From positions 17,533 to 81,532 of the forward strand of contig VXMD01000050.1 in NCBI GenBank assembly GCA_009841255.1: a DNA stretch of 64,000 nt. Direction: 5' to 3'. Each line of letters opens with the position of its first letter. Position 1 is the stretch's first letter. The stretch is from Candidatus Poribacteria bacterium. Lineage in GTDB: Bacteria; Poribacteria; WGA-4E; WGA-3G. The notes beneath the pieces are model-generated. The model was not told the DNA's origin. It was given only the letters and a program-made list of their open reading frames with translations, and made no database searches. Shown here one piece after another: positions 1,827-60,495 of the stretch. Both the position numbers and the translations under genes were made by a program.

Positions 1827-1939
1827 AACCGTAGTCCGTAATGTAATGGAGGGGTTTTTGCTTGGGTGTTTCCCCTAGATATACGTAAAGGAACGTCAAA
1901 CCTGAAACCTACCTGCCCGAACCGCAAGGTAAAATTAAA
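1827..1939 (+). repeat. leader-type intergenic element (degenerate copy) ending CCGCAAGGTAAAATTAAA-ATG of the DUF58 gene
   Basis: Shares CCGTAG(T/C)CCGTAA...GGAGGG and the terminal CCGCAAGGTAAAATTAAA with the other copies. Confidence 0.5.
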
Positions 1940-3295
1940 ATGCACTTAAGCAACCGTCTCCTCATCTTCTTACTTATAGTTGCCGTTCCGATTGCGCTTA
2001 GCGGTGTTTCACCGAATCTGTTATTCGTCGGGGGAGCCTATATCGTGGTGCTTTTCGTCGTCAGTGCCGTGGATTACCAGACCAATCCACTTTTAAAAAG
2101 CATCGAAGTTCACCGAGAGATGAATTCCAAATTTTCGTTAGGCGTGGAGAACGTCGTGACGCTGAAGGTCATCAATCGCTCGCGCCATCAGCTCAAAGTG
2201 CGTCTCAAAGACGATTTCCCCGACGAGTTCCTGTTCGATGCGGTTGTCCACGACCGCTATGTTTCCGCGATGGACCAGACGGATATATCGTATCGTCTGA
2301 CACCCCTACGGCGAGGAATTTATCGGTTCGTAGATATACATCTGCGGTGTCAAGGGATCCTGGGACTTGTCGTCCGACAACGGCGTATCCAAGCGGCGAC
2401 GGAAATAAAAGTCTATCCGAACCTGCAAGCGATCCGACAATATGAACTCTTAGTGAAGCGTGGGATGCTCCATCAGATCGGACTCAAGAATTCACGGCGA
2501 TTCGGGGAAGGCACGGAGATGGAGCGACTCCGTGAGTATTTTCCTGATGACGATTTCCGTTGCATGGATTGGAATGCCACTGCGCGGCAACGGAAACCGA
2601 TTGTTCGGGAATTTGAGACCGAACGGAGCCAAGATGTCGTCATTATGGTGGACACTGGGAGGCTCATGGCATCGCCGATCCTTTTAGAGACGTCCAGGCT
2701 ACCTTCTACGGAGGCAACATCGCAAAAGGCGATGCTGAAATTGGATTATGCCATTAATACGACTTTGATGACAGCGTATGTCTCGACGCTCAAGGGGGAT
2801 AAGATTGGGTTGATCGCTTTTGCGGATACCGTTCATCAATACCTTGCGCCGAGGCCCGGCAAAAAGCAGTTTCTCACGATGCTGGAGGCGATCTATGCAC
2901 TCCCTGTCCATGCGGTTGAACCGGATTTTGAAGCGGCATTCAAGTATCTCGCCGCAAAGCAGCGAAAACGTGCGCTTATCATCCTATTTACGGACATCTT
3001 GGATAGCGATTCTGCTGAGGGGATCGCCGCCTATGTGTCGCAACTCTCTAAGCGTCACCTTGTTGCTTGTGTGACCTTGACAGACTCCGGTATCGTTGAA
3101 TTGGCGCAACAGAAGTCTACGGATTCCAAGTCAGTCTATCAGAAGGCAATCGCTGAGCGGTTGTTGCAGGAGAAACATGCAACATTAGAGATCCTGCGGC
3201 GTCGAGGGGTCATCACGATTGATGTCCCTGCGCATCAGTTGACAATGGCGGTGGTGAATAAGTATCTGGAGTTGAAAGCGAAGTCTCAAATTTAA
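1940..3295 (+). CDS. DUF58 domain protein (vWA-like MoxR partner)
   Basis: N-terminal TM helices. Central DUF58 and vWA-like region (VIMVDTG). Located immediately after MoxR. Confidence 0.8.
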   Translation: MHLSNRLLIFLLIVAVPIALSGVSPNLLFVGGAYIVVLFVVSAVDYQTNPLLKSIEVHREMNSKFSLGVENVVTLKVINRSRHQLKVRLKDDFPDEFLFDAVVHDRYVSAMDQTDISYRLTPLRRGIYRFVDIHLRCQGILGLVVRQRRIQAATEIKVYPNLQAIRQYELLVKRGMLHQIGLKNSRRFGEGTEMERLREYFPDDDFRCMDWNATARQRKPIVREFETERSQDVVIMVDTGRLMASPILLETSRLPSTEATSQKAMLKLDYAINTTLMTAYVSTLKGDKIGLIAFADTVHQYLAPRPGKKQFLTMLEAIYALPVHAVEPDFEAAFKYLAAKQRKRALIILFTDILDSDSAEGIAAYVSQLSKRHLVACVTLTDSGIVELAQQKSTDSKSVYQKAIAERLLQEKHATLEILRRRGVITIDVPAHQLTMAVVNKYLELKAKSQI

Positions 3296-3445: not shown

Positions 3446-3600
3446 TTGCTTAAGCAATTTTCGGTATTAAATATGCACATTGTCTGTCGATGATGGGCGG
3501 GGAAACCCTAGGGGAAACACCCAAGCAAAAACACCCTACGGGGTCCGCACCCATCAGAAAGGCAGAAAAATTGTAATTTATTATTTAATATTGCTTAATG
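3446..3600. mobile_element. MITE-like intergenic element with terminal inverted repeats TTAAGCAAT / ATTGCTTAA
   Basis: Near-identical to 29344..29460, apart from a roughly 30-bp internal insertion whose reverse complement recurs at 1849..1878. Confidence 0.55.
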
Positions 3601-4548: not shown

Positions 4549-4603
4549 TGAATCGTATTGAAAATCAACCTATTTTACAGGGGAAGGTTCCTGACTTTTA
4601 CAC

Positions 4604-5392
4604 ATGAACGAACAGGTATCCGTGGAAACACCGGAACAGATTGATATAGAATTCCAGCAGGCAGGTATCGGTTCTCGTTTCTATGCGGCACTCATTGATA
4701 CCGCGGTGCTTACGCTGATTTCACTCGTCGGATATTACGTCAACAGGCGGTTTATCTCCGAACTCGGGGATATTGTCGGTAATTGGCTCGGCGCGTTGGG
4801 CGGGGTTATCGTTTTCGCGCTGTTCTGGGGTTACTATATGGTGTTCGAGGTTACCACGAATGGTCAGACTCTTGGAAAACGCGTCCTCGGTTTACGTGTT
4901 ATCAAGGAGGGTGGCTATCCGATCGGTTTTGCTGATGCTGCGATCCGTAATTTGGTGCGAATCGTCGATTTTCTTCCTTTCTTTTATGCCGCGGGTTTAC
5001 TGTGTATGGTGATAAACAGGAAGTGGCAGCGATTGGGGGACCTCGCGGCGGGGACACTTGTCATTAAAACGGCACGGACAGCGTTAAAACCGACCGGTGC
5101 CGGTTCACACGCAGAGAACGCATCTATCAGCATTCCACCCCGAGAATTTATCTACACTGCGTGGATACAACCGGCGTTGGTGACGGAGACAGAGATGGGG
5201 GTGATTCGTGAATATCTTGGGCGTCGAGCAACGCTCCCGGGACCCCGTCGATTGGAACTCGCACGCGTCATCGCCAATCCTATCGTTGAAAGGATGGGCG
5301 TGCCTGGCTTTATTGGCTACGATAGGTTTTTGGAGGAGGTCTACATGCTACAAACCTACGAAGAACTGAATCATATTGAGACTGATAGTTAA
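4604..5392 (+). CDS. RDD family membrane protein
   Basis: N-terminal RDD-like domain with R..D..D spacing and TM helices. Confidence 0.65.
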   Translation: MNEQVSVETPEQIDIEFQQAGIGSRFYAALIDTAVLTLISLVGYYVNRRFISELGDIVGNWLGALGGVIVFALFWGYYMVFEVTTNGQTLGKRVLGLRVIKEGGYPIGFADAAIRNLVRIVDFLPFFYAAGLLCMVINRKWQRLGDLAAGTLVIKTARTALKPTGAGSHAENASISIPPREFIYTAWIQPALVTETEMGVIREYLGRRATLPGPRRLELARVIANPIVERMGVPGFIGYDRFLEEVYMLQTYEELNHIETDS

Positions 5393-10011: not shown

Positions 10012-10767
10012 TTAGCCTTCATCTATGACGTAGGGGCGTCTACCCACGGAGGGCGGCAGGAGCATCCGTTTCTGTTGTTCCGTGAGTTCGCCGTATTTGC
10101 TGAGGTCGTGATATTCTCCCGACCATGCGGAGTGTCCCGGACTGTATTTGTAGAGCAGGGAGCGGCGTTGATGTTTTGCCCGCCACGGCATCGTCCCATG
10201 AACAAGCGCTTCAGTGAAGAACAACACATCTCCCGCTTCGACAGGCGGTTGCACGACGTAGTGTGCCGGACGCTCGAAATGCTGCACATCCGACGGTAAG
10301 TCCCGCAAGAAATTGCTCTTGTGGCTGCCCGGAATACAGGCGAATCCGCCCGCGCCTTCTGGTGCATCTGCCAAATTGTAGGTCATCACAGACAATCCGT
10401 TGCGCATAACACCATCGCGGTATTTGTACCAGTGATCCGCCTCAGGACCGCCGGGTCCACCCCCATCTTCACCGCCGTGTAATCTACCGCCTTGTTGCCC
10501 TTCATCCATAAAGATGGTATAATCGTGGTCGAGACGGACGTGCGGACCTAATAACTCGAGGAGATACGGAAGAATCTTCGGATGGTCAATCAGACTCTTA
10601 AAGGGTTCACCCCACAGACTCGACACTCGCTCGCCGTGTCCTCTCAATCTCTCGCTGGATTCGCTATCGATAAACGCATTCATCTCAGCGACTTCGTCCT
10701 CGGTCAAGATGTTCTTTATGACGAGATAGCCTTGAAGGTCTACCTGAAATTTTTCTTCGCTGGTCAT
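10012..10767 (-). CDS. phytanoyl-CoA dioxygenase (PhyH) family protein
   Basis: PhyH fold motifs. HxD...H iron ligands are plausible. The conserved leader element abuts the ATG. Confidence 0.75.
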   Translation of the reverse strand: MTSEEKFQVDLQGYLVIKNILTEDEVAEMNAFIDSESSERLRGHGERVSSLWGEPFKSLIDHPKILPYLLELLGPHVRLDHDYTIFMDEGQQGGRLHGGEDGGGPGGPEADHWYKYRDGVMRNGLSVMTYNLADAPEGAGGFACIPGSHKSNFLRDLPSDVQHFERPAHYVVQPPVEAGDVLFFTEALVHGTMPWRAKHQRRSLLYKYSPGHSAWSGEYHDLSKYGELTEQQKRMLLPPSVGRRPYVIDEG

Positions 10768-10860
10768 TTTTTAATGTTTCCTTGCGGAGAAACAACGTGC
10801 GTTAAGACGCTTAGATGCGTTGCTTATATCCGCCCTCCATTCCATTACGGGCTACAGGTT
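10768..10860 (-). repeat. leader-type intergenic element abutting the ATG of PhyH gene 10012..10767
   Basis: The minus-strand reading ends ...AACGCACGTTGTTTCTCCGCAAGGAAACATTAAAAA-ATG. Confidence 0.6.
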
Positions 10861-10942
10861 TTGAAGGTATCGTCAGAGAAATCCTTGTGTGAGACGAAAA
10901 CCTCTTAACCGATGGGTGGCTGCCAATTGCTAATTGTTTCTT

Positions 10943-11677
10943 CTAACCTGCCTCAATAACCGGGGGTCTTCTACCGACGGACGGCGGCAGGAGCATCCGT
11001 TTCTGTTGTTCCGTCAACCCTTCGTATTTACTGATGTCGTAATAGTGTTCCGACCATGCCGAGTGTCCCGGACTGTATTTATAGAGGAGGGAACGGCGTT
11101 GGTGTTCCGCTGTCCACGGCATCGTCCCGTGGATGAGTGCTTCGGTGAAAAACAGCACGTCCCCGGCTTCGAGTGGTGGTTGGACGACATAGTGTGCCGG
11201 ACGCTCGAAACGTCGCACGTCTGTTGGGAGGTCTGTCGGGAAATTGCACTTGTGGCTCGCTGGGATACAGGCAAATCCGCCCGCTCCCGCTGGTGCATCC
11301 ATCAGATTGTATGTCATCACGGACAGTCCGTTGCGCATGTGTCCATCTCGGTATTTATACCAGTGGTCCCCGACACCTCCACCGGCGCGTCCGCCGTCCT
11401 CGCCGCCGTGTAATCCACCGCGCCCTTGCCCTTTCTCCATGAAGAGGGCGTAGTCGTGGTCGAGTCGGACATGTGGACCCAGCATTTCGATGAGATACGG
11501 CAAGATGTTCGGGTGATCGATGAGTCTCCTGAACGGTTCACCCCAGAGACTCGGTGGTCCCTGGAGGTCGCCTTTGTCGATGATAGCGTTCATCTCAGCG
11601 ACTTCATCGTCGGTCAGCACGTTCTTTATGACGAGGTAACCCTCGAGATCCACTGCAAATTTTTCTTCACCAGTCAT
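10943..11677 (-). CDS. phytanoyl-CoA dioxygenase (PhyH) family protein, tandem paralog
   Basis: About 75% identical to 10012..10767. Same leader motif before the ATG. Confidence 0.75.
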   Translation of the reverse strand: MTGEEKFAVDLEGYLVIKNVLTDDEVAEMNAIIDKGDLQGPPSLWGEPFRRLIDHPNILPYLIEMLGPHVRLDHDYALFMEKGQGRGGLHGGEDGGRAGGGVGDHWYKYRDGHMRNGLSVMTYNLMDAPAGAGGFACIPASHKCNFPTDLPTDVRRFERPAHYVVQPPLEAGDVLFFTEALIHGTMPWTAEHQRRSLLYKYSPGHSAWSEHYYDISKYEGLTEQQKRMLLPPSVGRRPPVIEAG

Positions 11678-11710
11678 TTTTTAATGTTTCCTTGCGGATA
11701 AGTGATGTGG
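11678..11710 (-). repeat. 3'-terminal part of the leader-type element abutting the ATG of PhyH gene 10943..11677
   Basis: Reads ...TCCGCAAGGAAACATTAAAAA-ATG. Confidence 0.5.
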
Positions 11711-11921
11711 TTCGTGATTTGAAGATTTCGGTGTTTGAGTCGCCTGCGTGTTTTTGCGAATCAACGCTGGATTTAGTCTAACCCCAGACTAAATCCGGTA
11801 TTTCTGTGTATTGTTGCAGGCTTACGGACCTGGGTGTACCAAAACCCTCTTAACTGGTAACTGAAAACTGACAACTGAAAACTATTCCTTATTATAGCAT
11901 TACCGAAATATTTCGTAAACG

Positions 11922-29343: not shown

Positions 29344-29460
29344 GTTAAGCAATTTTCGGTATTAAATATGCACATTGTCTGTCGATGATGGGCGGGGAAA
29401 CCCCGCCCCTACGGGGTCCACACCCATCAGAAAGGCAGAAAAATTGTTAATATTGCTTAG
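29344..29460. mobile_element. MITE-like intergenic element, second copy
   Basis: Same terminal inverted repeats. Internal perfect hairpin GGGCGGGG-AAA-CCCCGCCC. Confidence 0.55.
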
Positions 29461-35387: not shown

Positions 35388-35547
35388 GGAGTAGTTGTCG
35401 GTCGTCAGTTCTTGGTTATCGGTAAAGAGGTTTTCGTCTCATAAAGGGTTACTCTTTGGAGTGTCGGAAGTTGTTGGTATCCTGCACACCCCCAGCTTGC
35501 GGGGGTAGGGGTGGCACAACCTAACAGGTTATGCTACGATAGGCTCA

Positions 35548-35783
35548 AAACCCGTAGCCCGTAAGCGTAGCGGAGGGCGGCTTTAAGGAACGCTCTTGAT
35601 AGTTGAAACGCACGTTACTTCTCCACAAGGTATTATTAAAATTCTTTGTGTCATTGATTCCATACCCGTAGCCCGTAAGCGTAGCGGAGGGCGGATTTGA
35701 GGAACGCTCTTGATAGTTGAAACGCACGTTACTTCTCCGCAAGGTAAAATTAAAAGATTAAAATTCTTTATGTTATTGATTCC
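35548..35783 (+). repeat. tandem duplication (2 x about 115 bp) of the leader-type element upstream of the GT4 gene
   Basis: Two adjacent copies of CCCGTAGCCCGTAAGCGTAGCGGAGGGCGG(A/C)TTT(G/A)AGGAACGCTCTTGATAGTTGAAACGCACGTTACTTCTCC(G/A)CAAGGTA...ATTCTTT(A/G)TG(T/)TATTGATTCCAT. The second copy ends at ATG 35784. Confidence 0.7.
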
Positions 35784-36854
35784 ATGACAAAGGACGGTGC
35801 CGAATCGCAACTGCTCAAGACGTTGGATCGGTTGCCACCGGAGCAGTATGAAGCGTCCGTTGTGCTGAGTCGTGCCGAAGGGGAACGCGTCAGGGAACTC
35901 GCCGCACTGCCCTGTGTGCGGGAAGTCGCAACGCTTGCAAGTGAAGGCAGACGCATGCGGTTGCTCGAAAAGGCGTTCGCACTTGGGGGTATTGTTAACG
36001 CTGTCAAGCCCGACATTGTGCATAGTTGGTTATGGTACTCCAATTTCCTCTGTGGACTCTCGCGTAAATTCGGACTGTGGCGACAGATTCCGTTCATCGC
36101 TTCGCAACGCGGCGACTACCATGCGCGATACGGGAAGTTTCGGCTCTATCTTACGGAGAAACTCATCTACAATGCCGCAGATGTCCTGCTGACGAACGCC
36201 GCGCAGATCCAACGACAACTCCACCAGCGGTATCCAGACAAAAAGGTTTTTAGTATCCCCAATCTATTGGAACTACCTGCCGAAACGTGGTCGCCGCACA
36301 CGTCTCCTCCCGAGGAAAAATTAATCGTAAGCGTCGGACGATTCGCCTCTGAAAAGGGGCATCGGTATCTGATTGAGGCGTTAAACTCGCTGAACCGAGC
36401 AGATGTCGCATGGCGGTGCAGGTTTCTCGGTGAGGGTGAACTGGAGGCGGAACTCCGAGCACTCACAACGGAATACGAACTCTCGGAACGGGTGGCGTTT
36501 CCAGGTTTTTGTGAAGATGTTTTTTCTGTGCTTTTGACGGCAGATGCGTTTGTGCTTCCGTCGTTGCACGAGAGTTCACCGAACGCATTGATCGAGGCGA
36601 TGGGAATCGGGATGCCGTGCATTGCATCGGATGTGGGAGGTATCGTGGATTTGATAGAAGATGGGAAGAACGGTATCCGAGTGCCACCACAGGATCCAGC
36701 GGCGTTAGCGGCGGCACTATATCAGGTGCTGACGGAGCCTGATCTTGCGAGTGAATTGGGTAAGAATGCCCGCGCGACGATTCAGGAGAAGTTTGATAGT
36801 GCGGCGTCTCTTCGGAAATTAGAAGGCGTTTATCGGCAATTGTTCGTTGAGTAA
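35784..36854 (+). CDS. glycosyltransferase family 4
   Basis: GT4 C-terminal motif EAMGIGMPCIASDVGGIVDLIEDGKNGIRVPPQD. Confidence 0.8.
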   Translation: MTKDGAESQLLKTLDRLPPEQYEASVVLSRAEGERVRELAALPCVREVATLASEGRRMRLLEKAFALGGIVNAVKPDIVHSWLWYSNFLCGLSRKFGLWRQIPFIASQRGDYHARYGKFRLYLTEKLIYNAADVLLTNAAQIQRQLHQRYPDKKVFSIPNLLELPAETWSPHTSPPEEKLIVSVGRFASEKGHRYLIEALNSLNRADVAWRCRFLGEGELEAELRALTTEYELSERVAFPGFCEDVFSVLLTADAFVLPSLHESSPNALIEAMGIGMPCIASDVGGIVDLIEDGKNGIRVPPQDPAALAAALYQVLTEPDLASELGKNARATIQEKFDSAASLRKLEGVYRQLFVE

Positions 36855-38484: not shown

Positions 38485-39164
38485 CAGAATGGCATCGTGC
38501 ATACATTCAGAATGCTTACCGCGAGTTAGAAGAGGGGACAACGCGTAATCAACTCGATACTTTGAACATTGATGCTACCGGCAAAAGGGTGTTAGATGTC
38601 GGGTGTGGAGCCGGGAATCTTCTTGTTGCCCTCTCCACCGATACACCCGAACTCCTTGTGGGTGTCGATGTAGATGCGGTCTTCTTGACGTACGGACGTT
38701 CTCAAATCGGGGAGTTCGTAGCACCCTTTTCTGCAGATCCTGTTTTGCTGCGTGCCGCGCTTCCGAATCTGCCGTTCGCAGACGAAACTTTTGATGTGGT
38801 CACCTGTTTCCTTGTCATGCCGCATGTGCCGGACGACAAAGCCGCCTTAATGGAGTTGGCGCGAGTCTTGAAACCCGGCGGCACCCTCGCGATCTCTGGA
38901 CACGGTTTGGGATTTCCGCTCCGGTATCTCAAGCGTTTCAGACTGAAGCCGTTACAGATGTACCTCGCCAGTCTGATTTATGGATGCACGGGGAAAAAAT
39001 GGATTCGGAACACACTTCAAAACGACAGGAAAATCTGCGACCTCTTAAAGCGTATCGGCGTGGTGCCCGAGATGCGGCACTACAACAAACGGGTGCTTGG
39101 ATGCGTTGCGACTTACTGGATTAAGGCGATTAAGAGTGATGTGAGTCCTAAAGCGACACAGTAA
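38448..39164 (+). CDS. class I SAM-dependent methyltransferase
   Basis: VLDVGCGAGNL motif I and LKPGG motif. Confidence 0.8.
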   Translation: MDEFFAVGRHRVTEWHRAYIQNAYRELEEGTTRNQLDTLNIDATGKRVLDVGCGAGNLLVALSTDTPELLVGVDVDAVFLTYGRSQIGEFVAPFSADPVLLRAALPNLPFADETFDVVTCFLVMPHVPDDKAALMELARVLKPGGTLAISGHGLGFPLRYLKRFRLKPLQMYLASLIYGCTGKKWIRNTLQNDRKICDLLKRIGVVPEMRHYNKRVLGCVATYWIKAIKSDVSPKATQ

Positions 39165-39952
39165 TAGGAAAAGATCGAGAATTTGCCTCGGTTTAGCATG
39201 ACCAGTAGGAACCGCAACGCGATGTAACCGACGATAAACGAAGCGAGCATCCCGGTTCCGACGATGTGAAACGGGATTGTGGTGTCTCCGAGGTCTCGGA
39301 TTTTGAGGGCAACGGCGCCGAGAATCGCAGGAATTGAGAGAAGGAAAGAGTATTCCGCCGCGGTTTTTGCGGGAATCCCCAAAAAGAGTGCCAACGAGAT
39401 TGTCGTGCCGGAACGGGAGATGCCGGGTGTAATTGCGCAGCCTTGTGCGATGCCGATGAGGGGGGCGTGCCACGTTTTCAATTCGCCTGCGGGGTTATCA
39501 GAAACATCCGTCTTCTCTCTACGGAGTCGCGGGAGTTGAAGAATAATGCCGGTGAGGATGAGCATGCCGCTCACGATGCGGACCTCGTCGAAAAAGGACT
39601 CTAATTGCGTCTTGAACACCACAGCGATTATGCCTGTGGGAATGGAACCGAGAAATATTAGCCAGATAAACTTGAGTTCCGCCGACGTGTTGAGTGTTGA
39701 CTTGAGTTTCCGCCAGAAGCGGGGACTCCCGACCGTAGAAAGCCCACCTGTTACTAACCTTCCTATTGCCTCACGATACGCGACGAGCACGGCGGCTAAT
39801 GTGCCGACGTGAAGCATCACATCGAAAAAGACGAGGGGTTCCTTGAGTCCGAGGAATTGCTGCGCCAAGACGAGATGGCCTGAGCTACTGACGGGTAGGA
39901 ATTCTGTGAGACCTTGTAAAATCCCGAGGAAAATCGCTTCAAGAAATGTCAT
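39113..39952 (-). CDS. uppP: undecaprenyl-diphosphate phosphatase
   Basis: MTFLEAIFLGILQGLTEFLPVSSSGH signature. Start trimmed to the ATG at 39950-39952. The longer ORF to 40078 runs into the intergenic repeat and the promoter. Confidence 0.85.
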   Translation of the reverse strand: MTFLEAIFLGILQGLTEFLPVSSSGHLVLAQQFLGLKEPLVFFDVMLHVGTLAAVLVAYREAIGRLVTGGLSTVGSPRFWRKLKSTLNTSAELKFIWLIFLGSIPTGIIAVVFKTQLESFFDEVRIVSGMLILTGIILQLPRLRREKTDVSDNPAGELKTWHAPLIGIAQGCAITPGISRSGTTISLALFLGIPAKTAAEYSFLLSIPAILGAVALKIRDLGDTTIPFHIVGTGMLASFIVGYIALRFLLVMLNRGKFSIFSYYCVALGLTSLLIALIQ

Positions 39953-39958
39953 GGAGGT

Positions 39959-39987
39959 ATTGTAGCACTTAAAACGTTGGCTTTCAA
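39959..39987 (-). promoter_or_regulatory. near-consensus sigma70 promoter TTGAAA-17-TACAAT for uppP
   Basis: The minus-strand reading is TTGAAAGCCAACGTTTTAAGTGCTACAAT, 6 nt upstream of the uppP ATG region. Confidence 0.5.
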
Positions 39988-40000
39988 GTGGTAAAATTAA

Positions 40001-40095
40001 AACCGTAGCCTGCAACATCGGCGCAGGCGGATTTGAGAAAGGCACGTTGAGGTTGAAACGCAGGTTATTCCTCCGCAAGGTAAAATTAAAAAATA
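40001..40095 (+). repeat. leader-type intergenic element between divergent uppP and LamG promoters
   Basis: AACCGTAGCC-TGCAACATCGGCGCAGG-CGGATTTGAG...CCTCCGCAAGGTAAAATTAAAAAA. The CCTGC...GCAGG hairpin replaces the CCGTAAGCG...CGG segment. Confidence 0.6.
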
Positions 40096-40100
40096 ATATA

Positions 40101-40129
40101 TTGACGATGCGCCAGATATGTGTTAGAAT
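40101..40129 (+). promoter_or_regulatory. near-consensus sigma70 promoter TTGACG-17-TAGAAT for LamG gene 40160
   Basis: 5/6 match in both hexamers with a 17-nt spacer. AAGGAGG ribosome-binding site follows. Confidence 0.55.
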
Positions 40130-40159
40130 TCTTGTTAAAATGTTTAAGGAGGCACAAGA

Positions 40160-40992: not shown

Positions 40993-41385
40993 ATGAAATT
41001 AGGATTCTTATCAAAGATTTTTGAAGGTGCGTTGAGTATTGAAAAAACATATAACGAATGCGATGCTGCACTCAGCGAACTAAAAGCCTACAACGAAAAA
41101 CGCCAAGAAGCGGATTTTCGGATCTCAACTGAGGAAAAAGCCGAATTGGACGAGGTTGTCAACACGGCTATTACAAATGCGACCCGTATTATTGACAAAG
41201 AAGGCGAACGGAATTGGCCCGGTGTGTTTCGGGAGATGCACACGAATTTAGCAAAACTCTATTTGGAACTGGACGAACACGATAAGGTCCGAGCCGCCTG
41301 TGAACGTCTCCAAGACTATGGCGAAACCGGTAGACTGGAGGCCGATGAGGTGCTGGAGAGCCTCAAGGAGAAAGAAGATTCTTAA
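40993..41385 (+). CDS. hypothetical protein
   Basis: 130-aa helical, acidic ORF. Confidence 0.45.
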   Translation: MKLGFLSKIFEGALSIEKTYNECDAALSELKAYNEKRQEADFRISTEEKAELDEVVNTAITNATRIIDKEGERNWPGVFREMHTNLAKLYLELDEHDKVRAACERLQDYGETGRLEADEVLESLKEKEDS

Positions 41386-41470
41386 TTGTTCCTTGCGGAG
41401 TAATAACGTGCGTTAGAACTTTGAAATGCGTTTCTTATATCCGCCTGCGCCGATGTTGCAGGCTGCGTTT
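41386..41470 (-). repeat. leader-type intergenic element, reverse orientation, between two plus-strand genes
   Basis: The reverse complement reads ...GCCTGCAACATCGGCGCAGGCGGATATAAGAAACGC...AACGCACGTTATTACTCCGCAAGGAACAATTAAG. Confidence 0.55.
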
Positions 41471-41543
41471 TTGATGCTATCTTAAGAGGAAATCTTTATG
41501 AAGCGAAACCCTCTTGACTGATTGCTGACGGCTGACAACTATC

Positions 41544-43445
41544 ATGCAATTTCTGAACCCTGCCGCGTTTTATCTACTCGGTGTCATTCCGATCGTGGTG
41601 GCACTTCACTTTCTGAAATTGCGCCGCCACCCCCGCCTCGTCCCCAGCATTATGTTTTGGCGCTCCACTGCTGAAGACCGGAGAGCAAATGTCCCGTTCC
41701 AACGTCTCCGTAACCTACTCCTCCCACTGCTACAGGTGCTGTTTCTGTTGCTGCTGATATTCAGCGTCGCGCGTCCCACACTGCGTAGACCCGGATTCAT
41801 GCCCGGTAAAGCGATTCTTATCGTTGATAATTCCGCGAGTATGTCCTCAAAAGAGATGGGACAAACCCGCCTCGCACTCGCGAAACAGGAAGCCCGGCAA
41901 TACGTTGAAGCGGTTTCGTCAAGCGGTGGGATGATGCTCATGGTGACGAATTCCGCTGATACCCATATCCAACGAGCTTTTACAACGGATACCTCGAAAC
42001 TCCACCAAGCGATAGAGAGTATCGCTCAGACGCAGGCCCCGCGTAATCTCCGCCCTGTGTTTGATGCGGCAACACGCTATGCGGATTCACCGCAAGATAA
42101 GATTGTCTTTATCAGTGGAACGTTTGAAGACCTGCCGGATATATCGCTGCCGGTGCAGGAAATCGGCGTCGGTGGGAGTGCGGAGAATGTCGGTATCGTC
42201 CGGTTCAGCGTTGAGATGTTCGCGGATCGTTATGAGGTCCTCATCGGCATTCACAATTTTACGGATACACTGCGGGAATTAGACGTTCAATTGTCGGTGG
42301 AGACTGTTCCGCTTGATGATAGAGTGGTGTCTGTTCCGCCGGGTGAGACCAAGTCAGTCCTGTTTTCGGGGAATCCGAGCGGTTTAGCGGGAAAGGTTCT
42401 TAGTGGACACCTTGATGTGGCTGACGACTTTCCGCTGGATGACAGGGCTTGGGCGCTTCTATCTGCTGTCCCCTCGCTGCGGATTTTGCTTGTGAGTGAC
42501 AATCGAAAATCGTTGCTACCCGATCTTTTGAAATCTTATGGCGATCACGTGAAACTGAGTGTAGTGGATCCGGCGGATTATCACGGCACCGGCGATGCGG
42601 ATGTCGCAATTTTCGATGGTGGCACACCCACTGGACGCGCCGGTATCGGAGACTTCTCTGAAATCGCTTCTGGGACGGCTGTGGTCTTTATCGCGCCGGG
42701 GGACAATCTGCCCTTCGTTCGAGAGGATACTCCGAGTGTCGAAGCGGAGAGGACACCTGTGCGTGTTATCAAAGTAGATGGGAATCACCCGCTCATGGAG
42801 AGTGTATCGCTGCAGGGGTTACAGGTGAGCGAGTCTATGCACCGAGCGTTACCACTTTGGGGACATTCGCTTGTTGAAACGGAGAAAGGGGCATTGATAT
42901 GGCTCGGTAGCAGGGCGGACGCTCGGATCCTTGTTTTCGAGTTCGATGCGTTTAACCCCGAAATTTCTACCTTCGCGTTGACTGTCCCCGATGGACCGCA
43001 ATTCATCTATCAGTGTTTGGCGTGGTTTGAGGCGGGAACTGCCCCACTGCAGCCGCTTGCGTCTCAAGGAAGTGGAACCCGGCACGCCTTCCGAACCGGA
43101 GATCAGGTGCGCGTCGCATTGGCACGTGAGGGACGCACACTTCACGTGCAGAAACCTGATGGGACGACGGTTGGATTGGAGCGTCCGATATTCACCGGGA
43201 CGGATCAGATTGGCGTCTACACCCTTTTTGCCGATGATATTCAGCTTGAGCGATTCACCGTCAATCTGCTGAACCCTACGGAATCGGCACTGTCGCATTC
43301 TCCAACAACAGCGATTGCAGACGCTTCAATGGATGTGGCGGGCGGATTGCAACCGATGGCGCAGGAGGTCTGGCGTTGGTTTGCGTTTGCGGCACTCCTG
43401 CTGCTTCTGTTGGAGTGGTGGTTTTATCATCGAAATGGTCTGTGA
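41544..43445 (+). CDS. membrane-anchored vWA domain protein (BatA-like)
   Basis: N-terminal TM helices. MIDAS motif ILIVDNSASMS. C-terminal TM helix. Confidence 0.75.
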   Translation: MQFLNPAAFYLLGVIPIVVALHFLKLRRHPRLVPSIMFWRSTAEDRRANVPFQRLRNLLLPLLQVLFLLLLIFSVARPTLRRPGFMPGKAILIVDNSASMSSKEMGQTRLALAKQEARQYVEAVSSSGGMMLMVTNSADTHIQRAFTTDTSKLHQAIESIAQTQAPRNLRPVFDAATRYADSPQDKIVFISGTFEDLPDISLPVQEIGVGGSAENVGIVRFSVEMFADRYEVLIGIHNFTDTLRELDVQLSVETVPLDDRVVSVPPGETKSVLFSGNPSGLAGKVLSGHLDVADDFPLDDRAWALLSAVPSLRILLVSDNRKSLLPDLLKSYGDHVKLSVVDPADYHGTGDADVAIFDGGTPTGRAGIGDFSEIASGTAVVFIAPGDNLPFVREDTPSVEAERTPVRVIKVDGNHPLMESVSLQGLQVSESMHRALPLWGHSLVETEKGALIWLGSRADARILVFEFDAFNPEISTFALTVPDGPQFIYQCLAWFEAGTAPLQPLASQGSGTRHAFRTGDQVRVALAREGRTLHVQKPDGTTVGLERPIFTGTDQIGVYTLFADDIQLERFTVNLLNPTESALSHSPTTAIADASMDVAGGLQPMAQEVWRWFAFAALLLLLLEWWFYHRNGL

Positions 43446-43564: not shown

Positions 43565-45391
43565 TCAGCGTCCTATGGCTTTCAGAATTCTCTGAACCAT
43601 CTGCGCTTTTGGTTGCACTCCCCAGAAACTGTCAACAGCCTTTCCGTCTTGGAATACTATATAATGCGGCGTTGCTCGAATCGGATATTTTTGGAGCGTT
43701 TGTCGGGCATTCTTAATATTCAATTTCGCGACAGCAAACGTATTCCGGTGCTCTGAAGCAATTTGGGCGACAACTGGCGCCATCCGTGCACAGAACGGTC
43801 AGCCATCCTTTACATACTCAAGCAAGATGGGGGCATCTGATCCAAGTACAAGGCTATTAAACGTTGCGTCAGTGACTTCAAATGGGACCCCCGAAGTTTT
43901 ACTGGAAGTGGTAAAACGAATGTTAATGTCGGTGGAATTGCCCGCAGCATCGCTAACTTTTCCCGCAATGACATAGGTGATTGCGTTGCCGAGTTCTTTT
44001 CCTCTGACCAGTTCAAGCGTCCCTTTCTTACCTGAAACTTTGCCGAGCCAGCCCGCATCAACACCGGCGACGGTTCGCAGTGCGATGTTGCCAGTTACGG
44101 TTTCGTTGAAGGTAACTTCGATCCGCTTAAGTGCTTCCGGATCAACGTCCTTATCACCGTTCTTGACGTTTCCGCTGGTAATTTTGGGTGCCTCGGTGTC
44201 TGGAACACGGACGGTATAATTGAGCGTTTCGGATCCATCTGCCCAAGTGATGGTCAAGGCGAGTGGACCTGAGTCGAAGGGACCCGTGATTCGCACCCGT
44301 TTGCCCGTGATTCTCGTCGTTCCTGTGTTGACTGTAACATCCTCTGGTGGATTGTCAAAGGTCAGGATAAGGGTATCGTCGACATCAATTTGTGATCGGA
44401 CCGCTGGATTTGCGCTCACAAAAGCGGCAGGGGTTCTGATGGTATAGTTGAGCGTCTGGGCGCCATCCGCCCAAGTGACGGTCAAGGCGAGTGCTCCGGA
44501 ATCGAAGGGACCCGCGATTTCCACAGTTTTGTCGGTGACCGTAGCCGTTCCTGTGCTGACTGTAACGTCCTCTGGTGGATTGTCGAAAGTCAGGGTAAGG
44601 GTATCGTCAATGGATAGTTTGGAGTTGACTGCTGGATTGGCCCTGATGAAAGCGGCAGGGGTTCTGACGGTATAGTTGAGCGTTTGGGTGCCATCCGCCC
44701 AGGTGACGGTCAGTGTGAGTGCCCCTGGGGCGAAGGGACCTGTAATTGCTACAGTTTTTCCAGCGGGTGTGGCGACACCTGTGCTAACTTTAACGCCTCT
44801 TGGTGGATTGTCGAAAGTCAGTGTGATGGTATCGCTGACAACAATTTTTGAGTTCGTTGCTGGATTTGCACTCACGAAAGCGGCGGGGGTTCTGATGGTA
44901 TAATCGAGCGTTTGGGTGCCGTCTGTCCAAGTAATCGTTAACGTAAGCGGACCCGCATTAAAAGGACCCGTGATTTCCACGGTTTTGTCGGTGACTGTGG
45001 CGGTACCTGTGTTCACTGTAACATCGTCTGGCATGTTATCAAAAGTAAGCGTGATGGTATCGTTCAGCGTCAACTGTGAACCGGTTGCTGGGTTGGCACT
45101 CACGAACATCACAGGTGGAGGGACGGTTTTGCCCACGTGGCTCGCGACGCGTGTCAAATCGAGGATATTGACGGTGCCGTCGCCGTTGACATCCGGGTTC
45201 GGTGTCTGATCTGCGGTGGGTGTCGTGCCGAGATGTGCGGCGACAAGCGTCAGATCGAGGATGTTTATCACGCCGTCGGCGTTGACATCGGAGGCTCTTA
45301 AAGTCTCGAGATCCGTGTCTTGTGTATAGCCTACGGTTAAATGCGTGAGGATTAAACAGGTCGTCAGGCATAAAAAGGCGATTTTTCTCAT
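43565..45391 (-). CDS. dockerin / 4x Ig-like repeat / thioredoxin-fold protein with an in-frame UGA (putative selenocysteine) at the CxxC position
   Basis: Conventional ORFs are 43799..45391 (530 aa) and 43565..43783 (72 aa), in the same frame and separated by one TGA. The junction reads ...FEVTDATFNSLVLGSDAPILLEYVKDG-TGA-PFCARMAPVV..., which aligns to the Trx pattern ...[36 protein letters not shown]. Confidence 0.55.
44220..45131. repeat. four tandem 228-bp coding repeats (Ig-like domains) inside the dockerin protein gene
   Basis: Four consecutive 228-nt units with about 75-80% identity, visible as four parallel plus-strand ORFs of identical length. Confidence 0.8.
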
Positions 45392-45403: not shown

Positions 45404-46015
45404 TTATTCAGTTTCGTCAATCTCTAAGTTTCCAAGGATGCGTTGCACCAATTCAGCCTTCGGCATGGCTCCTGCAAACCCTGTTACAATTTCTCCATCC
45501 TTGAATACGATATAGGTAGGCGTTCCACGGATGTGATATTCAGCGGTTTTTTCCCGTTGGGTATTTACATCCAACTTGACGAAACTGAATGTCTCGCGAT
45601 ATTCCACTGCGACTTCTGCGACCACCGGTCGCATCCGTATGCAGAATATTCAGGTATCGTCTTTGAATTCTACCACAATCGGCAGTTCAGAACCCAAGAC
45701 GATATCGTCAAACGTTGCATCCGTAACCTCAAACGGGATACCGGATCTCTTACCTAAATGGCTCGCGGCGAGCACCAAATCGAGGATATTGACCGTTCCA
45801 TCGCCATTGACATCCGGGTTCAGGGTCTGATCTGCGGTGGGTGTCGTGCCGAGATGTGCGGCAACGAGCGTCAGATCGAGGATGTTTACGACGCCATCGA
45901 TATTGACATCAGATGCCCGTAGATGTTCAAGGTTTGTCTCTTGTGTGTAGCCTATCGTTAAAAAATGAGTCAGGACTAAACAGGTCGTTAGCAAAAAGAC
46001 CGTAATTTTTTTCAT
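45404..46015 (-). CDS. paralogous dockerin / thioredoxin-fold protein with the same in-frame UGA (putative Sec)
   Basis: ORFs 45650..46015 and 45404..45634 share a frame and are separated by TGA. Junction reads ...IVVEFKDDT-TGA-IFCIRMRPVV. Start set at MKKITVF (ATG 46013-46015), directly after the stop of the upstream gene. Confidence 0.55.
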
Positions 46016-58640: not shown

Positions 58641-59654
58641 TTAAATTTCGCCGTTACTTTCGCGGGTCATGAGGGTCAGGAAATTGTCAACCCGATCGAT
58701 TGCGGCTTGGGCGCGGTCGCGTGCCGATGCGTCTTTTTCCGATTCAGCGAGCCATTGTCGGCGTTGTGAGAGCCATTCGTTTGTCAGATGGTCGAGTTGG
58801 TTCAGGAAGTGAGGATCCTCGGTTTCACTGACGAAATACTCAATCACACCCAGCAATCCATATTTACGGTTTGTCTCCATATCGTCTAATTCATCTACCA
58901 TTTCCAAGAAAAGATGTTGATTCCTATCCTGTCGGGCTTGGGCAACTTCACGCGAGGCCTCTGTCAAGAGTTTGTCGACGAATTCCTGTTTGGAGTTAAT
59001 CCAACGCGGTAGGTTCCGGACGTAGTCTTCAAGGTCAAAGTTTCCACGTTGTAGCGCGAAATGGGAGTGGATGTGAATGTTTCGGAAGAAAGCGGTATAA
59101 CCGACGTTCGGGTCCATGGTGTCAGCATCGTAGAGGACTTGGTTTTCGATCCGATTGTAGAGCAGTTTAAAGTCCTCTGCTGTGAGGTTCATCGGCTTTA
59201 GGTGCGCGAGGACAACGGCTGTCGCCGCTTGGACGAAATCAGGATCAAAATCATACATCGCCAAGATGTTCTCGGTGATGACTGCCCCGGATTCGTGATG
59301 GACCTTGCCGTGGAGGTTGTGTTTGTCGTAGAGTTCGGTAACAACGTTCTGACCGGCAGGGGTGAGCGTCTCGTTTAGCCAGAAACCGTTGTGGTCGAGG
59401 ATACGTTGTCCGTTGTCGTCAGTCAAGATAACACCGTCGTACCGTTTGGTGATATCGTGCAGGGTGCCGGCGACTTCAAGCAACTTCACATCCCCGCCTT
59501 CCCGCTTACCGAGTTCCATGCTCAGCGCACGCACACGCATGGTGTGGTTCCATGTATAGTGTCGCCACTGGAAACCGACGCGGTTGTGTTCCCAGAGTGC
59601 GAAGGTTTCGTTAACTAAAGTTTCCAATTCATTCAAGACTTGGCTATAGTTCAT
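58641..59654 (-). CDS. HD-domain phosphohydrolase-like protein
   Basis: H...HD motif (GTLHDITK). Conserved leader element abuts the ATG. Confidence 0.55.
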   Translation of the reverse strand: MNYSQVLNELETLVNETFALWEHNRVGFQWRHYTWNHTMRVRALSMELGKREGGDVKLLEVAGTLHDITKRYDGVILTDDNGQRILDHNGFWLNETLTPAGQNVVTELYDKHNLHGKVHHESGAVITENILAMYDFDPDFVQAATAVVLAHLKPMNLTAEDFKLLYNRIENQVLYDADTMDPNVGYTAFFRNIHIHSHFALQRGNFDLEDYVRNLPRWINSKQEFVDKLLTEASREVAQARQDRNQHLFLEMVDELDDMETNRKYGLLGVIEYFVSETEDPHFLNQLDHLTNEWLSQRRQWLAESEKDASARDRAQAAIDRVDNFLTLMTRESNGEI

Positions 59655-59754
59655 TTTTTAATTTTTCCTTGCGGTTAAAGTTCGTGCGTTTCGACGTTGA
59701 GGGGCGTTGCTTATATCTGAAGAAATCCGCTAATTACTATCTGCCAAATCCGCC
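59655..59754 (-). repeat. leader-type intergenic element abutting the ATG of HD-domain gene 58641..59654
   Basis: The minus-strand reading ends ...CGAAACGCACGAACTTTAACCGCAAGGAAAAATTAAAAA-ATG. Confidence 0.6.
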
Positions 59755-60495
59755 TCAGGCGTTATATTTAACTTCAATGAGAGATAATCCGTGTGCTGGA
59801 GCTGACATTCCTGCTGCGGCTCGGTCTTTGGCATCTAAAATACGACGAAGTTCCATCTCAGCATCTCGGCATTTCGTGTATTTCAGAAGGGTACCCGTGA
59901 TGGCGCGCACCATACCTCGTAGGAAGGCATCCGCTTCAATCTCAAAGTAGACGTAGGGTGCTTTTGTCCACCAGTATGCCTCGTAAATCTCACAAATAGG
60001 GTTTATCCGGTCGCTCCCTACCTTTTGGAAAGAGGAGAAATCGTGTTTACCGACCAGCGTTTGGCACACATTGTTTGTTCGCGAGATATCGATTTCTGTT
60101 GCGAAGCGGTAACTCGTCTGTCGCATCAATGCACTCGGATATTCCCGATTCAAAATCGTGTACCGATACCGCCGACGTGTCGCGCTGAAGCGGGCGTGAA
60201 ACTCGACAGGCACCTCTGTTGCGGAGCAGACGACGATATCCGGCGGCAGGAGAGCGTTGAGTCCTTTCTGGAATGCGACGACGGGTATCCGTGAATCCGT
60301 CTGGAAGTTGGCGACCTGTCCCTCTGCGTGGACACCGGTATCGGTCCTCCCTGCCCCGATGATCTGTATCGGGGTTTTGGTGAGTTTTGCCAATGCCTCC
60401 TCGATGGTGTCTTGGATTGTCGGCATGTTCGGTTGCGTCTGCCAGCCGTGATAATTCGTGCCATCGTATTCAAGCACGAGTTTAATGTTTCGCAT
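59755..60495 (-). CDS. truA: tRNA pseudouridine(38-40) synthase
   Basis: MRNIKLVLEYDGTNYHGWQ and catalytic-Asp region GRTDTGVHA. Confidence 0.9.
   Translation of the reverse strand: MRNIKLVLEYDGTNYHGWQTQPNMPTIQDTIEEALAKLTKTPIQIIGAGRTDTGVHAEGQVANFQTDSRIPVVAFQKGLNALLPPDIVVCSATEVPVEFHARFSATRRRYRYTILNREYPSALMRQTSYRFATEIDISRTNNVCQTLVGKHDFSSFQKVGSDRINPICEIYEAYWWTKAPYVYFEIEADAFLRGMVRAITGTLLKYTKCRDAEMELRRILDAKDRAAAGMSAPAHGLSLIEVKYNA

Follow-up and report, generated by a model that had tools for sequence, protein, structure and literature searches.

A mosaic intergenic repeat of Candidatus Poribacteria that runs into the start codons of unrelated genes

In one genome of Candidatus Poribacteria, near-identical sequence stands in front of a DUF58 gene, PhyH genes, a GT4 gene and an HD-domain gene. 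All of these lie within a stretch of 64,000 nucleotides (assembly GCA_009841255.1, contig VXMD01000050.1, positions 17,533 to 81,532), which is called the window here. The question is what kind of element is shared by unrelated genes in this way, and what it does at their start codons. Positions 35548-35783, upstream of the GT4 gene, hold two tandem copies of the element, which is ~96 nt long; they follow each other at a distance of 114 nt and share 93% identity. Three independently assorting modules make up the element as a mosaic, and it belongs to a repeat family that is restricted to Candidatus Poribacteria, a phylum of sponge symbionts. Our favoured reading, to which we give a probability of about 0.45, is that of a recombining intergenic cassette whose 3′ module would act in the mRNA as a translation start region, A/U-rich and poor in Shine-Dalgarno (SD) sequence, joined to a hairpin like that of the repetitive extragenic palindromes (REPs).

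A repeat family of one phylum

The first-pass annotation of the window listed eight copies of the element, and all eight exist, at or near where it placed them. A hidden Markov model built from the window copies, iterated with nhmmer and run on the window, returns exactly these eight (one per 8 kb), and an independent repeat search of the window recovers the same repeat families. The terminal motif CCGCAAGGWAAAMATTAAAA is found six times in the window when up to three mismatches are allowed, against 0.05 expected from shuffles. Four copies end directly at an ATG, namely those of the DUF58/VWA gene, the tandem PhyH pair and the HD-domain gene. The GT4 gene follows its copy after an extension of 25 nt. 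A further copy has no attached gene, and another is inverted between two plus-strand genes; in all of these placements the annotation was right.

The motif CCGCAAGGWAAMATTAAAA was scanned over 185,579 bacterial and archaeal species, with one genome each. At least 120 stretches matched, and almost all of them are from metagenome-assembled genomes (MAGs) and complete chromosomes of Candidatus Poribacteria, with ~27 different Poribacteria assemblies among the 80 loci listed. Three matches from elsewhere (Bacteroidales, Vagococcus and a Nitrospirae MAG) have no further similarity to the element and are chance matches. Copies were collected from the window and from 120 loci, which are pieces of ~8 kb around the motif matches and are cited by number below (L001 and so on), 998 kb in total; genes were called crudely, as longest open reading frames (ORFs). 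This collection holds 216 copies according to nhmmer, 174 of them full length. As the loci were fetched with the 3′ motif, density was taken only at more than 1.5 kb from any exact motif, and there, away from the ascertaining motif, 47 non-motif copies in 588 kb amount to one per 12.5 kb. Such non-motif copies are only 40% of the total, which puts all copies together at about one in every 5 kb and the extrapolated range at about one per 5-12 kb. By extrapolation, a genome of 5-6 Mb probably contains several hundred to ~1000 copies. No match to Rfam 15 fell on the element, whether at the gathering score or at E <= 5 in the window, at E <= 10 on positions 35500-35800, or at the gathering score on 18 Poribacteria loci, and no publication describing it was found in the literature searched.

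Hairpin, middle segment and 3′ module

The 96-column consensus of the element reads AAACCCGTAG CCCGTAACGAAGTGGAGGGC GGATTTAAGAAACGCACGTCAAAGTTCAAACGCACGTTGTTTCT CCGCAAGG TAAAAT TAAAA (A)AT. At its 5′ end, after a tag (G)(T)AG, stands a hairpin of 21-25 nt called P1 (columns 10-30); then comes a middle segment of ~45 nt, and the 3′ module closes the element. The first-pass annotation held that the variable hairpin retains pairing potential, and this is borne out by compensatory changes in P1. Its outer stem is found as GCCC/GGGC, GTCC/GGAC, GCAC/GTGC, GCTT/AAGC, GCTC/GAGC and GCCTGC/GCAGGC. In a MAFFT alignment of 106 copies the cells changed on both sides number 107, compared with 31 ± 6 after shuffling, and none of 500 shuffles reaches 107. 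When the partners are slid by one to three columns the covariation score is far lower. Columns 12 and 28 form CG, UA or AU pairs, and columns 13 and 27 form CG in 59 copies and UA in 43. There are two types of loop: G-T-A-A-Y-G-N-A-R-T-G-G-A, in which an inner C-G/U-A pair also covaries, and a loop of 9 nt, AACAACGGC. In the tag (columns 7-10) G is found in 66%, T in 65%, A in 99% and G in 98% of copies. Its final G pairs with C30 in 99 of the 106 copies; the tag is therefore partly present and partly paired.

The middle segment comes in three types, 'AAG...GTTxTTTCT', 'TACGG...CCTGACCGAA' and 'GACTCGAACACG...CTTAT', and these are independent of the type of P1 (chi-square p = 0.77). There is also no obvious link between the middle type and the W that follows AAGG. 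A second long helix (P2) closing the middle segment was suggested by the differences between two subtypes (AGAAAC/GTTTCT versus CGG/CCG). It was ruled out, since RNAalifold finds no structure within either subtype, and mutual information and pair tables within subtypes reveal mismatches where compensation would be expected. Across the copies, compensatory changes are found in P1, and a second helix has no support from covariation. A pairing of GCGGAG near the 5′ end with CTCCGC just before AAGG, also put forward there, has to be given up: it is possible only in some combinations of P1 and middle types, two modules that assort independently, and it is absent from the consensus fold.

The 3′ module is nearly invariant and reads CCGCAAGG-W-AAAATTAAAA, which can also be written CCGCAAGG-W-A-W-AAT-TAAAA. 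In the full set its conservation is inflated, because the loci were fetched with the motif, and it was therefore measured again on 81 copies without the exact search motif. In these, CCGCAAGG is 94-100% conserved per column. The hexamer after AAGG is W, A84 (98%), W, A, A, T88 (99%), and TAAAA follows. The consensus fold from RNAalifold consists of the 4-bp outer stem of P1 and an invariant CC-GCAA-GG mini-hairpin of 2 bp, at -6.2 kcal/mol. From GCAAGG on, the 3′ tail is essentially unpaired in every fold, apart from a mini-hairpin of 2-3 bp in some. The seven window copies that were folded have z-scores of 0.95, 1.26, -0.59, -0.54, -2.27, 0.46 and 1.79, and so fold no better than shuffled sequences. 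The earlier description of a 'structured 5′-UTR' (untranslated region) is hence not supported for an element with one 4-bp stem, a mini-hairpin and z-scores from -2.3 to +1.8 that are mostly positive.

Start codons and the signals in front of them

In 104 of the 216 copies a long ORF starts no more than 2 nt from one fixed position of the model, which lies 12 nt after AAGG. The start codon is ATG in 89 of 100 attached copies checked, and the spacer between AAGG and this ATG, which had been pointed out as long, is indeed 12 nt in 72 of the 100. A co-directional gene lies downstream of 157 copies (73%), and 36 others (17%) meet a converging gene in antisense orientation. The TAA stop of this converging gene is, in ~24 of the 36 cases, the complement of TTA in the terminal ATTAAAA. 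Since these stops lie inside the terminal ATTAAAA, the AT-rich end abuts coding sequence in both orientations. Stops supplied by the complement of the element were seen at window positions 41383-41385 and, for example, in L103, L056, L064, L025, L043 and L050. At the hairpin end there is a spacer of ~50-200 nt to the next gene. The attached genes (n = 103) hit 122 Pfam families, of which PhyH is the commonest (9), followed by ABC transporters, oxidoreductases and others. The copies found by nhmmer, the ORF starts and the spread over Pfam support the view, already taken in the first-pass annotation, that this is a dispersed cassette at the start codons of unrelated genes.

With so many families downstream there is no regulon, and this bears on the idea of a signal-responsive regulatory RNA that would control one, be it a riboswitch-like leader or one to which a CsrA-type protein binds. 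It is true that the hairpin has a conserved loop, G(T/A)AAYGNARTGGAG, which is common to a short second family described below, and that the single-stranded, nearly invariant CCGCAAGG is a candidate binding site for a protein or an RNA. However, the multi-helix architecture of such RNAs is absent, with a single 4-bp stem supported, the copies do not fold better than shuffled sequence, and no Rfam family matches even at E <= 10. The GGA sites that had been likened to those of CsrA are not conserved either. In leaders bound by CsrA, GGA motifs are conserved, and as a rule they sit in hairpin loops and overlap the SD. Here GGA follows CAAGG only where column 83 is A, which is the case in 41 of the 81 unselected copies and ~40% of copies (under half), and it is single-stranded rather than in a loop. 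Lacking both structure and regulon, the element is most improbable as a riboswitch or CsrA leader.

The ribosome-binding signal is more telling. Among element-free genes (375 with ATG) the motifs GGAG, GAGG and AGGA form a sharp peak at -13 to -9 (start positions -13 to -10), so Poribacteria normally use a canonical SD sequence; the element genes have no such peak. As an example, orthologs in L052 and L003 have the same N-terminus (MKTITYRD...). In L003 the spacer is 44 nt long with AAGGAG at normal spacing, and in L052 it is 134 nt long and ends with the element at the ATG. To judge from such sequences, the element apparently replaces the normal ribosome-binding signal. It had been proposed to supply a ribosome-binding region, and this is very likely, considering that element genes have no canonical SD and that in L052 the element occupies the place of the SD-bearing spacer seen in the L003 ortholog. 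The Laminin_G_3 gene of the window has a canonical promoter of its own, TTGACG-17-TAGAAT (40101-40129), and a strong AAGGAGG SD (region 40101-40159), and ordinary sigma-70 and SD signals are thus in use in this genome. This gene lies just downstream of the copy without an attached gene.

In the favoured reading, the 3′ module would serve, as part of the mRNA, as a translation-initiation region without a normal SD. AAGG(A), 11-12 nt upstream, would be a weak and far-spaced match to the anti-SD, and the unstructured A/U-rich tract that follows would run into the AUG. P1 would be a separate REP-like module that may affect RNA stability or processing, or the propagation of the element, and the family would spread and be reshuffled via local duplication and recombination between copies. 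The column after AAGG, column 83, bears on the first part of this. Counting A and T only, it is A in 53 of 97 ATG-attached copies as opposed to 24 of 101 unattached and 3 of 29 antisense copies (Fisher p = 1e-5), with T in 44 attached and 77 unattached copies. It is the most context-associated of columns 1-94 (p = 6.5e-5). An A in this place extends the anti-SD match to AAGGA and lengthens the A-rich tract, and a -10 box loses its first-position T. For transcripts that would contain the element, there is one case in the window. The copy of the second PhyH gene lies downstream of a canonical extended -10 promoter (TTTACG-17-TATAAT, 11919-11891, minus strand), and the element there would be in the leader. 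More generally, ~30% of copies have TANNNT at the 5′ boundary, at -13 and -8/-7, which is an enrichment of about fourfold, and this -10-like hexamer would put the transcription start on the first base of the element or a few bases away from it. Canonical sigma-70 promoters just upstream of the element were tried as a candidate and dropped, as they are not enriched at 9/12 matches.

Several observations weigh against this reading. The promoter upstream is not consistent, TANNNT being enriched in only those ~30% of copies, and strong sigma-70 matches are rare upstream of the element. At 12 nt from the ATG, AAGG lies ~3 nt beyond the SD optimum of the genome (the GGAG peak starts at -11), and AAGG(A) gives only 4-5 paired bases. 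In the short second family AGGAG is found 14-15 nt from the ATG, which is inconsistent with the same SD alignment. For P1, mismatches of the G-U and A-C kinds stand at 24:17 in sense and 6:5 in antisense copies; the asymmetry between them is not clear, and P1 may act at the RNA or at the DNA level. Pair 15-25 is CG in 16 and TG in 9 antisense copies, compared with 40 and 69 sense copies, and a perfectly palindromic P1 of the CTGC type is relatively commoner in antisense contexts (no formal test was made). This hints, if weakly, at a role for the non-canonical GTAA-type hairpin on the sense strand. Finally, the hexamer 6 nt before the ATG, with A in second (98%) and T in sixth position (99%), has the exact geometry of a promoter for leaderless mRNA.

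Such a promoter would explain the 3′ module differently. WAWAAT after CCGCAAGG would be the -10 box and TAAAAA the discriminator, transcription would start at the A of the ATG, an SD would be unneeded, and the rest of the element would be upstream DNA. Even among copies that were not selected with the motif, 98-99% have A in position 2 and T in position 6 of the hexamer, and TATAAT is one of the variants. The gap between hexamer and ATG is 6 nt in most attached copies, 89% of attached starts are ATG, and the element genes do without an SD while a strong SD is used elsewhere in the genome. The hexamer-TAAAAA-start geometry is also retained, with CATAAT or CATAGT, by most members of the short family, which have their SD-like motif elsewhere, and solo GGTAAAATTAAAAAATG modules are found in front of genes. 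Architectures of this kind are also seen apart from the element. In L080 there is TTGACT-17-TATGAT-6-ATG, and the BacA gene of the window has TTGAAA-17-TACAAT-6-ATG (39950-39987, minus strand), conserved in L015 and L018. The BacA (undecaprenyl-diphosphatase) case is of textbook form and conserved in three genomes; it implies that the longest-ORF start at 40078 is probably wrong and that the coding sequence is 39113-39952. However, T at -12 is depleted exactly where a -10 box would be needed: start-abutting copies have 44 T and 53 A, versus 77 T and 24 A elsewhere (p = 1e-5), the opposite of the prediction. A -35-like hexamer was looked for at 16-18 nt and none was found, and the near-invariance of CCGCAAGG is left unexplained. 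The antisense copies, 17% of all, would fire into the 3′ end of the converging gene, and outside the element family few genes have a -10 hexamer at -12. We consider a leaderless promoter rather unlikely and favour the translation-start reading over it; both may operate.

Copies, turnover and known systems

Of the two tandem copies upstream of the GT4 gene, the first (35548..35641, plus strand, found by nhmmer and by repeat search) has its P1 at 35557-35578 and a slightly decayed 3′ module, CCACAAGGTATTATTAAAA, at 35623-35641. The second (35662..35758, plus strand, found by motif scan and by nhmmer, the latter at 35664-35758) has its P1 at 35671-35692 and its 3′ module, CCGCAAGGTAAAATTAAAA, at 35737-35755, and ends 25 nt from the GT4 ATG (35784). 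A mini-ORF of five codons, ATG TTA TTG ATT CCA TGA (MLLIP*), lies at 35770..35787 on the plus strand and shares bases of its stop with the start codon of GT4 (ATGA at 35784). Upstream of the GT4 orthologs of L015 and L018 (85-87% at the amino acid level) there is a mini-ORF of similar sequence (MSLIP). The overlap of stop and start suggests that the element and the GT4 gene may be translationally coupled.

The copy of the DUF58/VWA gene (1827..1942, nhmmer 1827-1940, plus strand) ends in the ATG at 1940 and has a 22-nt mini-module, GTTTTTGCTTGGGTGTTTCCCC, inserted directly after P1 (1854-1875). On the minus strand, a full-length copy (10766..10861) ends in the ATG (10767) of one PhyH gene. The copy at 11676..11822, also minus, belongs to the tandem PhyH paralog, in whose ATG at 11677 it ends; the 5′ half of this copy is degenerate and its 3′ module intact (11678-11697). 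The two PhyH (phytanoyl-CoA dioxygenase) paralogs, at 10012-11677, have proteins that are 76% identical, and they were duplicated together with the leader element at a spacing of 910-931 nt. The copy without an attached gene (39999..40094, plus strand) lies in the divergent region between BacA (minus) and the Laminin_G_3 gene (plus) and is preceded by a solo GGTAAAATTAAAA at 39990-40002. Together with the inverted copy (41377..41472, nhmmer 41382-41471, minus strand), which is antisense to both of its plus-strand neighbours, it forms an inverted pair of 97 nt with 81% identity. Gene 40993-41385 has its TAA stop at 41383-41385, complementary to TTA in the terminal ATTAAG of the inverted copy. 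The copy of the HD-domain gene (59653..59754, minus strand) ends in the ATG at 59654. Model columns 29-96 are present (59653-59726) and the 5′ part is missing; the stretch where P1 would be expected reaches the 3′ end of the truA ORF (stop 59755-59757).

The collection as a whole also shows a mosaic in motion. Insertions of 19-77 nt are found after the 3′ strand of P1. A mini-module of ~20 nt, GTTTTTGCTTGGGTGTTTC, occurs inside or beside P1 in forward (21) and reversed (5) orientation; its pattern is found 33 times outside elements as well, and some of these are clear copies of the mini-module. Sites are at 1854-1875 in the window, in L001, L038, L051, L083 and L115 (reversed), and outside elements in L008 (7631), L013 (4427) and L015 (4496). 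From its sequence it looks like a further building block of the mosaic. The terminal 21-nt module is tandemly duplicated in L002, L015, L016, L018 and L030, and whole copies stand in tandem before the GT4 gene of the window and in L024, L087 and L116. Among 97 orthologous intergenic comparisons the element is on both sides in 17 and on one side only in 18, so that presence/absence is found in 18 of the 35 comparisons with an element on at least one side. The two copies of the inverted pair in the window, for instance, are absent at the orthologous sites in L015 and L018, where there is different sequence of similar length, and at the site of the inverted copy the last codons of the upstream gene (40993-41385) differ from those of orthologs without the element. 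Between L094 and L019 the element is 96% conserved, compared with 68% at synonymous sites, and L008 and L017 have different P1 modules although the proteins are 98% identical.

The first-pass annotation had called the element possibly MITE-like (miniature inverted-repeat transposable element). No terminal inverted repeats of 8 nt or more were found within three copies, and the 5′ end, AAACCCGTAG, is unrelated to the complement of the 3′ end, TTTTTAATTTTACC. At orthologous sites that lack the element there are no clean empty sites and no target duplications; the whole spacer differs. The label has to be dropped on all three counts. Module swapping, tandem copies and the replacement of whole spacers indicate that the family spreads by duplication and recombination, and duplication with recombination between copies fits the turnover better than cut-and-paste transposition, of which no sign was seen.

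This turnover could also belong to a selfish mosaic repeat like the REPs and bacterial interspersed mosaic elements (BIMEs), with no dedicated role in expression, spread by recombination alone or by a hairpin-recognising enzyme, such as a REP-associated tyrosine transposase (RAYT) or a Y1 transposase of the IS200/IS605 type. In that case the AT-rich end would abut coding sequence only through target preference and the deletion of spare DNA. A hairpin with a (G)(T)AG tag and a covarying stem is what GTAG-tagged REPs have (PMC3733652). The high copy number, the modular mosaic and the common presence/absence at orthologous sites would fit as well, as would the occurrence in both orientations, with a TAA stop inside the terminal ATTAAAA in ~24 of 36 antisense copies, and the similar frequency of G-U and A-C in P1, which is expected of constraint at the DNA level. 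The orientation bias is strong, however, with 157 co-directional and 36 converging copies, and the ATG is in frame and used by ~100 long ORFs. The attached genes have no alternative SD, the composition of column 83 depends on context, and the element of L052 stands where the L003 ortholog has its SD-bearing spacer. Terminal inverted repeats, target duplications and clean empty sites are missing, and no transposase turned up, although no genome-wide search for one was made. We consider a purely selfish repeat quite improbable.

A second and shorter repeat family (~52 nt) is represented by 23 copies, all in the loci and none of them in the window. Its members read GAAAC-C-[stem]-YCCAGGAGC-CATART-TAAAAA, often followed by ATG, where the stem is 6-7 bp long and richly covarying and has the loop GTAAYGNARTGGAG as in P1. 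Pairs stand back to back in opposite orientation, pointing outward. Sites include L077 (4243-4293 and 4345-4394), L057 (2705-2756 and 2809-2861), L021 (526-576 and 4040-4090) and L017 (7268-7319), besides others. An accessory module was noticed too, consisting of AAGAGGTTTTCGTCTCA...CTCTT and then a -10-like TAAGAT or TACGAT, at 10883-10913, 35418-35448 and 41487-41545 of the window and in L013, L019, L094, L096 and L103. In the cases seen its distance from a copy of the element is ~100 nt, unless it stands directly upstream of the copy, and runs of heptamer repeats (CAGTCAG, ATCAGTT, GCTGACC) often come before it. The upstream AAGAGGTTTTCG module is described qualitatively only, as its regular expression was too loose and missed known cases.

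Some other features were seen in passing. A dispersed repeat of ~100-125 nt is present at 3450-3574 and 29345-29447 of the window, with 59 nt at 100% and 41 nt at 98% identity and a gap between these blocks that differs in length between the copies. Both copies lie 3′ of unrelated minus-strand genes, SpoIIM-like and aldo/keto reductase, and the repeat contains a long GC-rich inverted repeat, GATGGGCGGGG...CCGCACCCATC. Four tandem repeats of 228 nt (44210-45121; 68-79% identical to the first) lie in a minus-strand ORF of 530 aa at 43799-45391, which probably encodes a repeat-domain protein, to judge from its sequence; a pair of 213-nt repeats is at 45129-45341 and 45750-45962. L107 contains, at 4549-4801, a T-box leader (Rfam RF00230, 109.7 bits), which is an ordinary riboregulator and has no relation to the element.

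Repeats dispersed through intergenic DNA, for example REP, BIME, Correia and BOX, are known already, and so is the reuse of promoters before unrelated genes. If the 3′ module works as a start signal, a large share of Poribacteria genes would start translation or transcription in a non-canonical way despite a genome with strong SDs, and the signal would have been spread by recombination rather than invented for each gene. A bolder version is a self-propagating plug-and-play cassette, made up of the hairpin, a CCGCAAGG box recognised by a protein or an RNA, an SD-independent start or leaderless promoter and the ATG, that would have colonised about a tenth or more of the genes of the phylum. This we hold to be doubtful and distinctly unlikely as a whole. 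If it were true, unrelated genes would share one expression signal, and a single trans-acting factor could co-tune them, for example in response to the sponge host. The matter bears on gene regulation in uncultivated sponge symbionts, on the annotation of gene starts in MAGs and on the design of expression signals. Orthologs with and without the element are a natural experiment on the exchange of such signals.

Several known systems resemble parts of the element. Correia elements of Neisseria are ~100-150 nt long, have hundreds of copies, often lie near gene starts, are a possible source of promoter elements and share transcripts with their neighbouring genes. Their ends are inverted repeats of 26 bp, and an IHF site and a duplicated TA target belong to them as well. 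The Poribacteria element is like them in size, copy number and position near gene starts, but it has no terminal inverted repeats, TA target duplication or IHF site; without terminal inverted repeats or target duplication it is neither a MITE nor a Correia element. Promoters of leaderless genes in Actinobacteria and Deinococcus have TANNNT 6-7 nt before ATG or GTG. The element similarly has its A2/T6 hexamer 6 ± 1 nt before the ATG and no SD; here, however, the hexamer is inside a long, dispersed and nearly invariant repeat, and its first T is depleted in attached copies. Bacteroidota have A-rich, SD-independent 'Kozak-like' start regions, and there are A/U-rich enhancers that depend on S1. 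Like these, the element has an unstructured A/U-rich tract before the AUG in place of a canonical SD. Unlike them, it is found in a phylum that otherwise has strong SDs, and the tract is a fixed sequence borne by a repeat and not a compositional bias. The Poribacteria-1 RNA motif, a candidate structured RNA that Weinberg et al. reportedly described from Poribacteria in 2017, is said to be multi-copy; identity with the element is unlikely.

The closest likeness is to REPs and BIMEs, which are also high-copy intergenic repeats in lineage-specific families made of small modules in either orientation, with a short, GTAG-like tagged hairpin whose stem is maintained through compensatory changes. By definition, the palindrome of GTAG-tagged REPs has an unpaired GTAG on one side (Di Nocera et al. 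2013, PMC3733652). P1 is, like a REP, a short palindromic unit of 20-40 bp that forms a hairpin, but near-invariance in its tag is limited to the AG, of which the G is paired. REPs are found mainly downstream of genes, between co-directional or convergent ones, and often as inverted dimers, whereas the element faces a downstream gene in 73% of cases; half of the copies end at an ATG and 17% follow a converging gene. The element also adds a part of 65 nt that ends at the start codon. For that part the nearest parallel is the putative mobile promoter, in which highly similar upstream sequences stand before non-homologous genes within a genome and expression signals are reused (Matus-Garcia, Nijveen and van Passel 2012, PMC3488235). 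The element likewise places the same upstream sequence before unrelated genes. The families of putative mobile promoters collected by Matus-Garcia, Nijveen and van Passel in 2012 are said to be small. In contrast, the element is extrapolated to hundreds of copies per genome, has a modular anatomy and is fused in register to the start codon. To our knowledge, no family has been described that unites very high copy number, confinement to one phylum and in-register fusion to start codons, in at least one ortholog pair at a site where the other genome has a canonical SD. By analogy, the element would work like a hybrid of a REP/BIME-type mosaic repeat and a putative mobile promoter.

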